DNA of 64,000 bases, taken from Candidatus Sericytochromatia bacterium. GTDB lineage: Bacteria; Cyanobacteriota; Sericytochromatia; S15B-MN24; UBA4093. The stretch spans positions 96,001-160,000 of the forward strand of contig JAKFBU010000027.1 of the NCBI GenBank assembly GCA_036676985.1. Direction: 5' to 3'. This document shows, one piece after another, positions 48,281-64,000 of this stretch (positions within the stretch are counted from its first letter, which is position 1; every line of letters starts with the position of its first letter). The translations under genes and the position numbers were made by a program. The notes under the pieces are model-generated. The model made no database searches and was not told the origin of the DNA. It saw nothing but the letters and a program-made list of their open reading frames with translations.

Positions 48281-51088
48281 ATGCAGGACCTCACGGCAGT
48301 GACCGCTCCGGCGGAGCAGGCGCCCCCTCTCACCCCCAAGAACGGCTGGGTCTGGCCCAAGCTCAGCGATCCCCGCTGGCCCTTCGCGATCATCCTCTTG
48401 ACTTACGCCGTCCTGGGCAGCACGCTCCTCGGGTTCAACCGCAACCCCTTCCAGATCCTGCTCACCACGGCCGTCGGGGCGCTCCTGGACGTCGGCCTGC
48501 GCTGGCTGCTGAAGCGCGAGAAGGTCTTTCCCCTCAGCGCCATCATCAGCTGCACGTCCATCTCGCTCCTGCTCAACTACTCCCACAACTACTGGCTGCT
48601 CTTCGTGCCCGTCTTCCTGACGATCGGCTCCAAGTACGTCTTCACCTTCAAGGGCAAGCACGTCTTCAACCCGTCCATGTTCGGCGTGGCCATGTCGCTG
48701 CTCGTCACCAACGACCTCGTCACGACGGCCCCCGCCTACCAGTGGGGCGGGACCATGGCCATGTCGATCTTCATCGTCATGGCGGCGCTGGTGCTCTTCG
48801 TCTTCCGGATCGGGCGCAATCCCCTCATCATCTCGTTCCTGGCGTTCTACACGCTGCAGACGGCGCTGCGAGCCTGGGTGATGCGCCACCACCTGCCGCC
48901 CGAAACCCTCTTCCTGGGCACCCTGACCTCGGCGCCCTTCTTCATCTTCACCTTCTACATGCTCACCGACCCCCAGACCTCGCCCAAGACGGCCAAGGGG
49001 CAGGTGGCCTTCACCTTCGCGCTGACGCTGGTGGACCTCTACCTGCACTTCAAGGAGAGCGTCTTCACCTTCTTCTACGCCGCCCTCCTCATGGCCGTGG
49101 GCAAGTTCCTGTTCCTGCATGGCCGAGAGTTCGTCCGGTCGGGCCCCTGGCAGCACCTGCGCACCTCCCTGTTCAACCGTGAGAAGCTGGCCGCCTTGGG
49201 CGTGGTGGGCGGCCTCGGGGCCGGGATGCTCGGTGGTTACCAGGCGGTGTTCGCCACCCAGATCAAGCCCGCGGACGTGGGGTTCGGCCTGCAGCGCCTG
49301 ACGCCCGAAGCGACGGGCATCCACACCGAGATGGGCGACGTCTTCCACGAGGTGGACCCGCGTCTGCAGCACGTCGCCAAGTGGCTCCTGTCGGTCGGGG
49401 ATGCGGTCGCCGTCGGGGACTACGACGGCGATGGCCGGGTGGACCTCTTCCTGACGAACCCCTTGAAGCGTCCCGCGGATCGCTGCGCGCTGTACCGCAA
49501 CATGGGGGGCTTCCGGTTCGAGCGCGTGTCCGTGCCGGCCTTCGACGCGGTGGCCCGGAACCCCGTCAAGTTCGGCCTCGCCTCGGCGGCGAGCTTCGCG
49601 GACATCGACAGCGACGGCGACCAGGACCTCTTCATCGCCTTCGGCTACGGCAAGAGCCGCCTGTTCGAGAACCTCAAGGCCCAGACGGGCAATCCCGGGT
49701 TCCGCGAGATCACGGTTTCGGCGGGCATCGACGAGCACACGACGAGCCTCGCCGGCAACTTCTTCGACTACGACCGAGACGGCAAGCTCGATCTACTGAT
49801 CGCGAACGCCGTCACGCCGTATCTGCCGGAGTACAAGGAGCCGACGCCGCTCAACCTCTTCGACCTGCCGCAGCCGGAGTACGCGGGCGATCGCCGCATG
49901 TTCAAGTTCATGCACAACGGCTGGCACAACGCCGACAACGGCGGCCTCAACGCGCTCTACCGCAACCTCGGCAACGGCCGCTTCGAGAAGCAGGACGTCA
50001 AGGCCATCGGCATGCCCGAGACCCACTGGACGCTCGCCATCGGCACGGGCGACCTGAACAAGGACGGCTGGACGGACCTCTACCTCGCCTCCGACTTCGG
50101 GCCGGACGACCTGTACCTGAACAAGGCGGGCAAGGGCTTCGAGCGGGTGGAAGGCCAGATGTTCGGCGACGTGGGCCGCGACACCTACAAGGGCATGAAC
50201 AGTACGCTCGCGGACTTCGATCGGAACGGCTACCTGGACGTGTACGTCTCGGACGTCCACCAGGCCCTGCAGGCCGAGGGCAGCCTGCTCTGGATGACCC
50301 GCCCGACCCAGGACCCCTTCCGTCCGAGCTTCACGGACGAGGCCACCAAGCGCGGGGCCCTCAACGAGCGCCGCTTTGGCTGGGGAGCGGCCGCTGGCGA
50401 CCTGAACGACGACGGCTGGCCGGACATCGTGCAGGCCAACGGCATGGTCGACGACCGGCTCGACCCCCTCATCAAGGAGGGCCGCAAGGACTACTGGTAC
50501 GTCAACCACAAGCTGATGCAGTCCGGCCCCGAGATCCACACCTACGTGGACATGTGGGGCGACCTCCGGGGCCGCACCATCTACCCCAACGAGGCGCGCC
50601 GGGTGTACCTGAACCGGGGGGATCGCGACATCAACCAGTTCGTCGACGTGGCCAAGCTGGTCGGCGCCGACGACCCGGACAACTCGCGCGGGGTGGCCAT
50701 GGCGGACTTCGACGACGACGGGGACCTGGACGTCGTCATCACGAACATGCACGGCCCCGTCTCGATCTACCGCAACGAGCTCTACGGCGCCACGACCAAG
50801 CCCAGGACGGCTTGGCTGGGTCTCACGCTCGTGGGCGACGGCAAGACGACCGCGCGCCAGGCGGTGGGATCCCAGGTGGTCGTCTCCTATTCCGAGCACG
50901 GCAAGAAGGTCGAGCAGCTGCAGGAAGTCCAGGTCATGAACGGCTTCACGGCCCAGGGGGACCAGCGCCTGCATTTCGGGCTCGGCGCCCACCAGGGGCC
51001 CGTGGAGGTGACCGTTCGCTGGTACGGCGGCAAGACCGAGACCTACCGGAACGTTCCGACCAATGGCTACCGCACCCTCCGGCAATAG
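48281..51088 (+). CDS. Fusion of RnfD/NqrB-like (UnbU-like) membrane domain and FG-GAP/ASPIC-UnbV (CRTAC1-like) domain
   Basis: DPRW, GSKYVF..KGKHVFNPSMFG, FYMLTDPQTSP; repeated GDxDxDGxxDL; QAVGSQV...GFTAQGDQRLHFGLG...VTVRW. Confidence 0.85.
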   Translation: MQDLTAVTAPAEQAPPLTPKNGWVWPKLSDPRWPFAIILLTYAVLGSTLLGFNRNPFQILLTTAVGALLDVGLRWLLKREKVFPLSAIISCTSISLLLNYSHNYWLLFVPVFLTIGSKYVFTFKGKHVFNPSMFGVAMSLLVTNDLVTTAPAYQWGGTMAMSIFIVMAALVLFVFRIGRNPLIISFLAFYTLQTALRAWVMRHHLPPETLFLGTLTSAPFFIFTFYMLTDPQTSPKTAKGQVAFTFALTLVDLYLHFKESVFTFFYAALLMAVGKFLFLHGREFVRSGPWQHLRTSLFNREKLAALGVVGGLGAGMLGGYQAVFATQIKPADVGFGLQRLTPEATGIHTEMGDVFHEVDPRLQHVAKWLLSVGDAVAVGDYDGDGRVDLFLTNPLKRPADRCALYRNMGGFRFERVSVPAFDAVARNPVKFGLASAASFADIDSDGDQDLFIAFGYGKSRLFENLKAQTGNPGFREITVSAGIDEHTTSLAGNFFDYDRDGKLDLLIANAVTPYLPEYKEPTPLNLFDLPQPEYAGDRRMFKFMHNGWHNADNGGLNALYRNLGNGRFEKQDVKAIGMPETHWTLAIGTGDLNKDGWTDLYLASDFGPDDLYLNKAGKGFERVEGQMFGDVGRDTYKGMNSTLADFDRNGYLDVYVSDVHQALQAEGSLLWMTRPTQDPFRPSFTDEATKRGALNERRFGWGAAAGDLNDDGWPDIVQANGMVDDRLDPLIKEGRKDYWYVNHKLMQSGPEIHTYVDMWGDLRGRTIYPNEARRVYLNRGDRDINQFVDVAKLVGADDPDNSRGVAMADFDDDGDLDVVITNMHGPVSIYRNELYGATTKPRTAWLGLTLVGDGKTTARQAVGSQVVVSYSEHGKKVEQLQEVQVMNGFTAQGDQRLHFGLGAHQGPVEVTVRWYGGKTETYRNVPTNGYRTLRQ

Positions 51089-62508: not shown

Positions 62509-64000
62509 GTCGTCTCCTGCAAGGCGGGAGGGGCCTGGAACCGTTCGGTCCAGCCGAAGGCGGCATGGAGGTAGGTGGGCTTGATATCGCCCGGGCGCTG
62601 CCCGAGTGCCTCGCAGCCTGCGTGGTAGCGCCCCACGGCCCCCGCGTCGACGCGCACCGGACGCAGAGCGCCCAGCTGCCCGAGGTCGCGGGCGTAGGCG
62701 TAATGGTGGCTTTCGCGCAGGCGCGCCTCCAGGTTCTGGGCCACAGCCAGGAGCTCGTCGTCCCGAAGGTCCGGGCAATCCAGGAAGAGGGCGTAGTAGG
62801 GCGGCTCGCCCCATTCTGGCGCCAGCATGGCGAAGCGGCAGTCCACCTGCAGGTCCGCGAGGATCTGCTCGATCAAGGCTCCGACTCGCAGCTCGTTGAG
62901 CTTCTCGCCGACCACGTCCGAGACCTTGCCGGTTTTGCCGACGAACTCGACGAGCGGAGTGGCCGCCACGCGCCCGACCACCCGGATGGCATCGTGCATG
63001 GCGTAGCGATACAGCCCGCCGCCGGTGGTCAGGAGGACGGAATAGCGATCGCCCACCGTGAGCTCATCCACCAAGAGGGGGCGGGCAGCGGGGGATCCGA
63101 GGGGGACGAACTCCAGCACGTGCGAGTCGACGGCAAGGACGGCGCCGGGATGGTCCAGGAGCGGAAAGGAGACGACGCCCTCGGTGGCGAGCAGCCCCTT
63201 GCCCTGAATTTCTACGCCCGGAAAGCGTCGCCGCAGCTCGGGCAGGAAGCGGGCGGCCACCCCACTCGTCCAGCAGCTCACGAGCTGGAGGTTCGGCCAT
63301 AGGTCGGTGCCGAGGACGGGCTCTCCTGCCTTCACGCGGGAGCTCAAGCGCCGGGCCAGGGCCGGCTGCGGGGTCAGTCCCCGCTCCAACGCCGCCTGAA
63401 GCCCTGCCTCCACGGGCGTTGGCGGGGTCAGGGTGCCGCGGGACAGGTCGTGGATCAAGCGATCCGCATGGCGATCGAAGGCCCCGAGCAAGAGCGTCAG
63501 GAAGCTAGGGTTCCAGACCGAGATGAAGCCCAGGCGATCGCCGTTCAGGAGATGCCGGAGCGTGACGTAGCGGTTCAGCTCCATGTCCGGCAGGTGCCGG
63601 ACCTCGGGTGGGACCATCATGAGCTGCTTGAGGACCCAGCGATCGACGGGACCGAAGTACTCGCTGTCGTCTTCGAAGCCGACTCGCAGCCCGCCGGGCG
63701 TGACCTCGCGCTGCCCGGAGCCGGACGAGATCGACCAGTAAGCGGCCAGTTCGCGCAGTCGGGGTCGCTGCTCCTGCAGATCCGCGAGCCAGACGGAGGT
63801 CGCCTGCTGGAACTCCCGCCGCAGGGAGGCCGTGAAGGGGATGTACTTGGAGGCGGCCGTCGAGCCCCCCGACTTTTCCATCATGAGGACGGGCTCGGCA
63901 GTGAGCACCCCATGCTCCCCCTGGCGGATGGCGTCGATCCAAGGCTGCAGCGCTTCGTAGTCCACGATCGGAACAGCAGCCTGGAAGTCTTCGAAGGACC
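62505..64000 (-). CDS. GH3-family acyl-adenylate / acyl-acid amido synthetase (5'-truncated by window edge)
   Basis: VPIVDYEAL, KSGGSTAASKYIP, KGLLATEG, LTTGGGLYRY..HD, GEKL. Confidence 0.9.
   Translation of the reverse strand, partial: SFEDFQAAVPIVDYEALQPWIDAIRQGEHGVLTAEPVLMMEKSGGSTAASKYIPFTASLRREFQQATSVWLADLQEQRPRLRELAAYWSISSGSGQREVTPGGLRVGFEDDSEYFGPVDRWVLKQLMMVPPEVRHLPDMELNRYVTLRHLLNGDRLGFISVWNPSFLTLLLGAFDRHADRLIHDLSRGTLTPPTPVEAGLQAALERGLTPQPALARRLSSRVKAGEPVLGTDLWPNLQLVSCWTSGVAARFLPELRRRFPGVEIQGKGLLATEGVVSFPLLDHPGAVLAVDSHVLEFVPLGSPAARPLLVDELTVGDRYSVLLTTGGGLYRYAMHDAIRVVGRVAATPLVEFVGKTGKVSDVVGEKLNELRVGALIEQILADLQVDCRFAMLAPEWGEPPYYALFLDCPDLRDDELLAVAQNLEARLRESHHYAYARDLGQLGALRPVRVDAGAVGRYHAGCEALGQRPGDIKPTYLHAAFGWTERFQAPPALQETT

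Follow-up and report, generated by a model that had tools for sequence, protein, structure and literature searches.

A stretch of 64,000 nucleotides from a Candidatus Sericytochromatia bacterium (positions 96,001 to 160,000 of contig JAKFBU010000027.1; G000:C27:96001-160000 in our numbering, on a 297-kb contig; hereafter 'the window', ~68% G+C) holds, from position 48281 onward, most of a real, conserved and uncharacterised gene system, as comparison with other genomes confirmed. The core of this system is a fusion of domains related to the enediyne proteins UnbU (E5) and UnbV (E4), a small membrane protein (u235), a GNAT-fold protein (u244), a GH3-type ligase and a Rieske oxygenase, with or without a tandem GNAT protein, and no published description of such a cassette was found in the literature, supplements aside. 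We put the odds at somewhat better than even (roughly 0.55) that this widespread five-to-six-gene cassette, together with lineage-specific additions, makes, tailors and exports an amide-linked envelope lipid of the N-acyl-amino-acid type. Genes were chosen by third-position GC and codon-position pattern, which are composition heuristics, and then scanned against Pfam and NCBIfam; third-position GC is 0.88–0.94 across the cluster genes of the window other than u235, and it is uncertain where g09, g10, g13 and g15 start. The core genes are as follows.

48281-51088, plus strand: g06, the fusion of RnfD-like, FG-GAP and UnbV_ASPIC domains, 935 amino acids (aa)
52271-52978, minus strand: g09, here u235, a membrane protein with no family
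55659-56843, plus strand: g13, Rieske plus VanA_C domains, true start probably near 55809
61393-62508, minus strand: g17, tandem GNAT, 371 aa (PF13527, PF00583), a frequent core member
62505-64000 and on to window-equivalent 64184, minus strand: g18, GH3, 559 aa
window-equivalent 65213-65947, plus strand: u244, 244 aa, no Pfam family, a GNAT-fold gene beyond the window

Taking one genome per species, we collected 53 loci with homologues of the fusion and compared 24 proteins from the window and its downstream flank with them by tblastn (E ≤ 1e-5). The fusion matched in 51 of these loci, u244 and u235 in 38 each, g13 in 37, GH3 in 36 and the tandem GNAT in 17. A stricter set (E ≤ 1e-10, with a fused-type homologue of at least 45% identity) holds 47 loci, 27 of them with at least 7 kb on both sides; in these 27 full loci u244 and GH3 are always present, the Rieske gene is found in 26, u235 in 24, all four together in 23 and the tandem GNAT in 10. 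Counts are lower in the 20 loci with shorter flanks (u244 11, GH3 9, Rieske 11, u235 12, tandem GNAT 6) as the missing flanks would lead one to expect. The median gap between core genes and the fusion gene is 96–2580 bases, and three loci with a propeller-only paralogue (L050–L052) carry none of the cassette genes (L053–L055 fell below the strict cut and were left out of the counts). The original prediction, made from the letters of the window alone, had taken some 16 kb of contiguous genes for a single lipid or acyl-amide cluster, and its fusion, GH3, GNAT and Rieske genes do recur together in distant taxa, with their order rearranged.

Eighteen of the 27 full loci are of Myxococcia type and are not independent of one another, because they share wider synteny. 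The other nine (five Polyangia-type, two Planctomycetota, one Eisenbacteria and one unclassified) retain four or five of the five core genes, arranged in no fewer than five orders or strand patterns, and at least six gene orders occur across the Myxococcia-type, Polyangia-type, Planctomycetota and Eisenbacteria loci and the window's lineage. The tandem GNAT is present in all nine of these loci, whereas only one of the 18 Myxococcia-type loci has it. Trees of GH3 (35 rows) and Rieske proteins (37 rows), built with FastTree only and without rows of less than 60% query coverage, give the same groups, with the Planctomycetota pair placed differently; alignments were made from 12–14 sequences of typical length out of 17–38 available. 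Identity to the window correlates between components in a mixed way that carries no information, since almost every locus is equally distant from the window. The fusion is uncommon in the phylum to which the window belongs, with 6 carriers (the window's genome among them) in a sample of 201 genomes; a search of one genome of the same genus, 87% complete, did not find it. Three relatives do carry parts of the system: G059 has u244, GH3, GNAT, Rieske and MMPL genes, G029 has MMPL, the g11 lipoprotein, u244, GH3, Rieske and u235, and G101, on a short contig, has ICMT and u244 (identities in G059 and G101 are those of L003 and L034, which are possibly the same DNA and were not double-counted). The five-gene core is also carried by Myxococcus xanthus (locus L014), in the arrangement u235 | fusion-u244-GH3-Rieske. 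One further record, titled Comamonas sp. (L011), has a Myxococcus-type cassette and synteny, and may be mislabelled or mixed.

The fusion protein g06 matches PF03116, PF13517, PF01839 and PF07593, and consists of ~10–11 hydrophobic segments of UnbU (E5)/RnfD-like type, an FG-GAP propeller and a C-terminal UnbV_ASPIC (E4) domain. Seven DxDxDG motifs suggest that the propeller is seven-bladed, and crude hydropathy with the positive-inside rule would place it outside the cytoplasm, because a K/R-rich loop precedes the last hydrophobic segment. When residues 20–345 were compared with shorter proteins, the matches were mostly fragments of fused proteins; the membrane domain is nevertheless homologous to a stand-alone 'UnbU' (24% identity over ~300 residues, pairwise E 3e-11), which justifies the label 'UnbU-UnbV fusion' that the gene had been given, and it is 36% identical to a stand-alone 'enediyne biosynthesis protein E5'. 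This domain is highly conserved (alignment A3), with invariant polar residues that include N53, R54, K118, H127, N130, Y153, Q154, R197, R202, H204, E208, D230, D252, H256 and E259. Because such residues sit inside hydrophobic stretches, an enzyme or specific channel seems to fit better than an anchor. More than 4161 homologues of g06 score at E ≤ 0.001 among 8000 candidates scored. The best 120 are 57–69% identical with the same domain set, apart from one 99%-identical near-copy, and include proteins from Archangium, Cystobacter, Myxococcus, Corallococcus, Pyxidicoccus, Haliangium and Sandaracinus as well as others named Planctomycetota, Binatia and Acidoferrales. Like RnfD and NqrB, g06 is polytopic and matches PF03116 above the gathering score (43.8 against 27.7); unlike them, it reaches only 23 bits against the NCBIfam rnfD cut-off of 207 and is adjoined by no Rnf or Nqr subunit genes, and the usual flavinylation motif is not evident in alignment A3.

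The enediyne minimal cassette consists of E3 (UnbL), E4 (UnbV), E5 (UnbU), PKSE and E10, with DUF1702 being the family that we take to be E3 UnbL. Like that cassette, the system described here has homologues of E5 (membrane, RnfD-like) and E4 (FG-GAP/ASPIC) as an obligate pair, here fused; unlike it, the window's cassette comes with no PKSE, DUF1702 or 4HBT thioesterase, has its domains in the order E5 then E4 in one chain, and has GH3, GNATs, a Rieske oxygenase and u235 as partners. Scanning metagenomes with a stand-alone E5-like protein as query yielded 80 loci (L065–L144, from soil and other contigs), in 47 of which an E4-like gene lies immediately upstream of E5; GH3, Rieske, u244, u235 and GNAT genes are found in none of the 80. 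Among the 25 of these loci that reach at least 8 kb, DUF1702 occurs in 11, a RoxA-like cytochrome in eight, a fatty-acid desaturase in five and halogenase-like flavoproteins in three, while six contain a KS-AT-KR-DH polyketide synthase (PKS; 1939 aa) followed by a 4HBT thioesterase, five of them in the full order DUF1702-E4-E5-PKS-thioesterase. E4/E5 is a portable two-part module that appears in several contexts, the window's being a third, PKS-free one, and the placement of stand-alone E4-E5 pairs beside polyene-type PKS or fatty-acid desaturases ties the module to long hydrophobic chains.

A PKS was sought around the cassette and elsewhere in the genome. None was present in the upstream window genes scanned (30826 onward except 32000-34700), and neither PKS, acyl carrier protein (ACP) nor non-ribosomal peptide synthetase genes were found in the next 20 kb downstream of the window. 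The only PKS in the 100%-complete assembly lies on contig C30 (locus L057, 5063-13740, minus strand) and consists of a fatty-acyl-AMP-ligase-type (FAAL) gene and, after it, KS-AT-DH-KR-ACP-reductase (2189 aa), which is not the PKSE type (KS-AT-ACP-KR-DH-PPTase); a tblastn search of the genome with a metagenomic PKSE returned only generic KS/AT/KR matches of 28–36% identity. For DUF1702, a PF08012 search of the genome gave no match, as did its search control, and a DUF1702 protein from L128 found none by tblastn. A pksE gene, which had been considered as a possible near neighbour, is neither just outside the window nor anywhere else in the assembly. The PKS on contig C30 itself looks like a lipid or alkyl-chain-forming module.

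The second polytopic core member, u235, has 5–6 hydrophobic or transmembrane segments, and its invariant residues include E105, H123 and E167, with D124 in at least 90% of rows (alignment A2). It matches no Pfam family, a profile search of the PDB gave nothing meaningful, and an Atlas search with the homologue from L025 (not the window's own g09) returned unnamed clusters only. A u235 profile run against 1.84 billion representative proteins gave 365 matches, 307 of them at E ≤ 1e-10 and mostly of 200–215 aa. Three of these are natural fusions and connect u235 with the E5-E4 protein as well as with lipid enzymes: P0258 (1154 aa) carries u235 (35% identity to g09) on the same chain as a complete E5-E4 protein (48% identity to g06), P0324 (491 aa) joins u235 to FA_hydroxylase, and P0283 (514 aa) to a glycerophosphodiester phosphodiesterase (GDPD). 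Apparent fusion-plus-u235 reading frames of 1140–1200 aa in L033 and L035 proved to be out-of-frame extension artefacts matching 0 Pfam families, and similar long frames in L026 and L036 were set aside.

By its domains g18 is a member of the GH3 acyl-acid amido synthetase superfamily, predicted to form amides: PF03321 (1.2e-56), PF23571 (3e-14) and PF23572 (3e-4) cover the N, M and C domains over its full length, and the nearest solved structure, JAR1, aligns over residues 39–533. The start ATG of g17 overlaps the GH3 stop TGA as ATGA, which indicates that the tandem GNAT and GH3 are translationally coupled, as had been proposed for this pair. An AlphaFold2 (AF2) model of g17 (pLDDT 88.9) is a tandem GNAT whose best full-length fold matches are N-myristoyltransferases (NMT; TM 0.56–0.61) and the tandem GNAT MAB_4324 (TM 0.58–0.66), with E ~1e-13. 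The u244 model (AF2 pLDDT 89.1) has a GNAT fold as well, with matches to AAC(2')-Ia and the Eis family (E ~1e-6); a profile search of the PDB with the u244 alignment gave nothing meaningful, and an Atlas search returned only the label 'GNAT family'. On these models both proteins have the GNAT acyltransferase fold and are predicted to transfer acyl groups.

The Rieske and mononuclear-iron motifs of g13 are both intact (cluster ligands C103/H105/C120/H123, iron site D212/H215/H220), and by these motifs it is a predicted Rieske non-haem iron oxygenase of the VanA/DdmC type. Its nearest solved relatives are DdmC, SxtT/SxtDIOX, NdmA/B and KshA, its best NCBIfam match is SdmA (77 bits against a cut-off of 600), and no reductase partner gene was identified near it. 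A paralogue with 39% identity lies ~60 kb downstream on the same contig (C27, 212073-213032). Two Rieske systems had been proposed for the window; g13 is a complete oxygenase, while the other is divided between g07, which retains the iron motif (D119, H122, H127) and traces of either end of the Rieske domain but has lost the Cys/His ligands, and g08, whose [2Fe-2S] ligands are C45, H47, C64 and H67 and which is 42% identical to the g13 Rieske domain. The pair looks like a rearranged paralogue of g13, that is, a split Rieske oxygenase in which g08 is the likely trans partner of g07, and it has no counterpart in any related locus.

Around the core lie further genes, which are listed below with the hydrolase-like gene that follows GH3.

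51063-51944, plus strand: g07, VanA_C only, a window-specific accessory
51946-52290, plus strand: g08, Rieske, 114 aa, a window-specific accessory
52984-53667, plus strand: g10, ICMT/PEMT (PF04140, PF04191), an accessory
53712-54485, minus strand: g11, lipoprotein (lipobox VAAC), an accessory
54570-55673, minus strand: g12, a membrane protein, polytopic and rich in His, that matches no family and has an unproven connection to the system
56903-57982, plus strand: g14, FA_desaturase (PF00487), an accessory
57909-60260, plus strand: g15, MMPL (PF03176), an accessory, start probably later than listed
60364-61008, plus strand: g16, lipoprotein with no family (lipobox LVGC), unconserved with the cassette
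window-equivalent 64211-64972, minus strand: an alpha/beta-hydrolase-like gene beyond the window, directly downstream of GH3

All domains named in the original prediction were recovered where it had placed them by Pfam and NCBIfam, and the cluster does continue past the window, as it had supposed: GH3 runs on for 184 bases and is followed by the hydrolase and u244, so that the cluster ends ~2 kb beyond the edge. The co-localised system is real, yet its core is narrower than the 16-kb unit that had been drawn and includes one gene (u244) outside the window; the MMPL, ICMT and desaturase genes vary with lineage, and the split Rieske pair, g12 and g16 occur in no related locus. In the tblastn comparison ICMT matched in six of the 53 loci, g14 in four and g15 in one, and there were no matches for g07, g11, g12, g16, the hydrolase or any flanking gene; g07, g12 and g16 are likewise missing from the three relatives. 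Among the 27 full loci, ICMT and a g14-type desaturase are each found in four and a g15-type MMPL in none.

ICMT genes, desaturases or hydroxylases, and RND/MMPL exporters are lineage-variable accessories. The methyltransferase g10 scores 66 bits against the NCBIfam isoprenylcysteine methyltransferase model (cut-off 160); of its homologues, those in the four mapped loci of Polyangia type lie downstream of u235 and the one in L034 upstream of the fusion, and the relative G101 has one too; four Polyangia-type loci combine ICMT with a g14-type desaturase. The desaturase g14 is DesB-like (129 bits against a cut-off of 500) with His boxes present and motifs intact, and other desaturase or hydroxylase families take its place elsewhere: ~10 Archangium-type loci have a second FA_desaturase family, and an FA_hydroxylase (best NCBIfam match OlsE, 53 bits) adjoins GH3 in L033 and L036, with a member of the family in L042. 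As for export, g15 carries PF03176 in two stretches (E 3e-67), duplicate MMPL domains over ~780 aa, and copies 42–53% identical to it lie near the cassette in G059 and G029. The lipoprotein g11, which has no Pfam family and no similarity to the LolA-like protein from L025, appears to be the partner of the MMPL protein: a 39% identical copy adjoins MMPL and the cassette in G029, and a g11 paralogue adjoins an MMPL paralogue on contig C39. Six loci (Polyangia-type and Planctomycetota) have HAE3-type RND pumps with Patched/sterol-sensing signatures, accompanied in two Polyangia-type loci (L025, L035) by LolA-like proteins, and L025 contains an alpha/beta-hydrolase; the pump in the window's lineage is MmpL3-like instead. 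Like the MmpL3 and HpnN exporters, the window's transporter stands beside a lipoprotein, and other cassettes have HAE3/HpnN-like pumps with LolA-like proteins; unlike them, the scores are far under the cut-offs (MmpL3 204 against 1400, HpnN 55–84 against 752). Neither g12, whose third-position GC is 0.94, nor g16 matches a family, with g12 scanned against both Pfam and NCBIfam. Our main argument for a lipid product is that different lipid-modifying and lipid-exporting families have been recruited repeatedly to the same core.

In the pathway that we favour, the cytoplasmic GH3 enzyme would adenylate a free, probably fatty, carboxylic acid and join it to an amine or amino acid (ornithine in the case of OlsH), after which u244, as a single-domain GNAT, and the NMT-like tandem GNAT may add further acyl groups and the Rieske monooxygenase may hydroxylate or demethylate the product. 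In some lineages the free carboxylate would be methyl-esterified by an ICMT-type enzyme, and the chain would be altered by a membrane-bound desaturase or hydroxylase. Together, u235 and the UnbU-like channel or enzyme domain with its external FG-GAP/UnbV propeller would perform a step in the membrane or periplasm, be it oxidative tailoring or hand-over, and in the window's lineage the MMPL transporter and its lipoprotein would move the product outward. The membrane partners, the lipid-type accessory genes and the precedent of OlsH all point to a fatty-acyl substrate. The scheme of activation, tailoring and export that the original prediction had sketched is in part borne out by these findings, with the fatty-acyl substrate being what we infer by analogy.

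That precedent is the only characterised bacterial GH3 that we found. As described in PMC12493201, OlsH of Singulisphaera acidiphila converts a free fatty acid and ATP to N-acyl-ornithine, and OlsI is an alpha/beta-hydrolase that adds the second acyl chain in the ornithine-lipid pathway; a 2026 review lists orders with OlsH homologues, and the passages of it that were consulted do not name Myxococcota (PMC12971839). Like OlsH/OlsI(/OlsG), the cassette is a lipid-type operon centred on a bacterial GH3, with an alpha/beta-hydrolase directly beside it in the window, a methyltransferase and hydroxylase as tailoring enzymes and, in Planctomycetota cassettes, a fatty-acid hydroxylase whose best match is OlsE. 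In contrast, its GH3 scores 59.5 bits against the NCBIfam OlsH cut-off of 620, the window's hydrolase matches no NCBIfam model, that of OlsI included, and is unconserved in the 53 loci, the window's methyltransferase is of ICMT type and not OlsG, and the core adds two GNATs, a Rieske oxygenase, u235 and the E5-E4 fusion; no characterised cluster was matched. Two cassette-bearing Planctomycetota genomes encode another GH3 that is nearer to OlsH (252 and 237 bits) and is placed directly after a FabH-like ketosynthase III (L063 3698-5056, L064 3281-4675). The low OlsH score and this separate Planctomycetota GH3 suggest that the cassette GH3 is a separate lineage outside the OlsH pathway, and we infer that it resembles OlsH in chemistry as an analogue, not an orthologue.

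This distance from OlsH, and the presence of a closer GH3 in the same genomes, weigh against an envelope lipid, as do several other points. The nearest solved Rieske relatives are mostly enzymes of small aromatic or alkaloid substrates (DdmC, SxtT, NdmA); GNAT folds are generic, and a TM of ~0.6 to NMT in the model is a shared fold only; no RND exporter lies within 10 kb in the 18 Myxococcia-type loci; MMPL transporters also export non-lipid siderophores; the core contains no ACP or fatty-acid synthesis gene; and the only NCBIfam match of the Archangium-type 'desaturase' is the arginine hydroxylase GntB, at 28.8 bits.

The main rival is a non-lipid small molecule derived from an amino acid, such as a signal or siderophore-like amide, for which the Rieske enzyme would provide N- or C-hydroxylation, the GNATs acetyl or acyl transfer and GH3 the amide-forming ligation, in parallel to a hydroxylase-GNAT-synthetase logic, with the membrane proteins and RND pumps serving export. 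We think this possible though unlikely. The best-matching solved plant GH3s are named for jasmonic acid, indole-3-acetic acid and 4-substituted benzoates, the Rieske relatives and the GntB match just mentioned speak for small substrates, the best fold matches of u244 are aminoglycoside acetyltransferases, and in about 9 to 11 Archangium-type loci a gene for an MFS transporter comes after the cassette. Against this, two core members are polytopic membrane proteins, u235 is found fused to a fatty-acid hydroxylase and to GDPD, the accessories are of lipid type (fatty-acid desaturase, fatty-acid hydroxylase, ICMT, HAE3 RND with LolA-like proteins), and there is no TonB receptor or uptake gene among the recurrent neighbour families.

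It is improbable that the cassette serves catabolism or detoxification, taking up an exogenous hydrophobic acid or xenobiotic, conjugating it (GH3, GNAT) and oxidising it (Rieske). Plant GH3 conjugation inactivates hormones and herbicides, according to PMC12493201, and offers a parallel for such a role. The VanA/DdmC-type Rieske enzymes are typically demethylases of degradation pathways, which would suit it as well, but no ring-cleavage or beta-oxidation genes recur with the cassette and the RND systems found with it are exporters by type, with LolA-like partners. The 57–69% identity of the fusion across phyla also points to a fixed endogenous substrate.

Quite improbable too is the lipidation and methyl-capping of a peptide or protein by the NMT-like tandem GNAT and the ICMT-like methyltransferase. 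N-myristoyltransferase and ICMT types are protein-lipidation enzymes in eukaryotes, and both the fold matches of g17 and the ICMT-family match of g10 recall them. However, ICMT is confined to the four full loci noted above, the gaps in compact cassettes (less than ~100–300 bases) hold no conserved small reading frame, in a survey that was not systematic for small frames, and no protease or precursor gene is among the recurrent neighbours.

That the genes are chance neighbours, or reflect inherited synteny and not one system, is very improbable. The closely related Myxococcia-type genomes that make up 18 of the 27 full loci could share their gene order by inheritance, and the mixed orientation in the window is compatible with chance; yet the nine other loci retain their four to five core genes despite other orders and strands, u235 and E5-E4 occur as one gene fusion, GH3 and GNAT are coupled by ATGA, and the fusion, rare in its own phylum, is still accompanied by GH3, u244 and Rieske genes in G059 and G029 (by u244 only in G101). 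Least credible is a PKS-based enediyne or polyyne pathway, which would draw on the E5 and E4 homology of g06 and the PKS in six of the 25 longer metagenomic loci, but across the 53 loci the families that recur up to 10 kb from the fusion include no PKS, the sole PKS of the assembly is on another contig and of another type, family search and tblastn found no DUF1702 or PKSE orthologue in the genome, and the stand-alone E5 loci lack GH3, Rieske, u244 and u235 throughout, and we reject it for this genome, barring a PKSE in DNA that is missing from the assembly.

Whatever the product, the fusion family has thousands of members at ~60% identity in several phyla, the fusion, u235 and the u244 subfamily are all uncharacterised, and their constant company with a GH3 ligase and a Rieske oxygenase makes a defined, testable unit, with the tractable laboratory organism Myxococcus xanthus among the carriers of the five-gene core. 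If the product is an envelope lipid, the GH3 route to bacterial aminolipids would extend beyond ornithine lipids, and a new membrane component would be added for groups with poorly known envelopes. The link to UnbU and UnbV provides a simple PKS-free system for learning the roles of both enediyne-cluster proteins. A broader and tentative idea, which we consider doubtful, is that UnbU-UnbV (E5-E4) and u235 form a general membrane or periplasmic machine that oxidatively remodels long hydrophobic chains and is plugged into a polyene PKS in enediyne-type clusters, into desaturases in others and into a GH3 ligase here. Myxococcota, Planctomycetota, Eisenbacteria and relatives of Cyanobacteria would then carry an unseen class of envelope lipids, namely N-acyl amino acids that have been tailored and, in some cases, methyl-esterified, and that may be polyunsaturated or acetylenic; working this out would provide a first handle on the role of E4/E5 in enediyne biosynthesis.

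The surroundings of the cluster are of other kinds. Downstream, u244 is followed by a DUF4015 glycosidase and then by housekeeping genes (DEAD helicase, MiaE, histidine kinase, KaiC-like ATPase, DnaE). The genes upstream of 48281 (GAF-HD, LigT-like, LIM/DA1-like, MFS and two CxxCxxCC proteins) are unrelated, and none of them recurs in the 53 related loci by tblastn. Rfam gave no match within 40000-64000 at E up to 0.1, and so no riboswitch clue, and in six related loci it found rRNA and tRNA only; promoter and terminator scans gave about what chance predicts (1 against 0.9 and 5 against 5.5). The two CxxCxxCC proteins, putatively zinc- or iron-chelating, lie at 41682-42716 and 47386-48192 (both plus strand), the second directly upstream of the fusion gene. 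At 43176-44309 (plus strand) a LIM domain and a DA1-like peptidase domain share one protein, a bacterial case of an architecture that is typically seen in plants, and in a Sandaracinus-type metagenome-assembled genome the related locus L041 encodes, at 1964-4609, a protein with three SRCR (scavenger-receptor cysteine-rich) domains.

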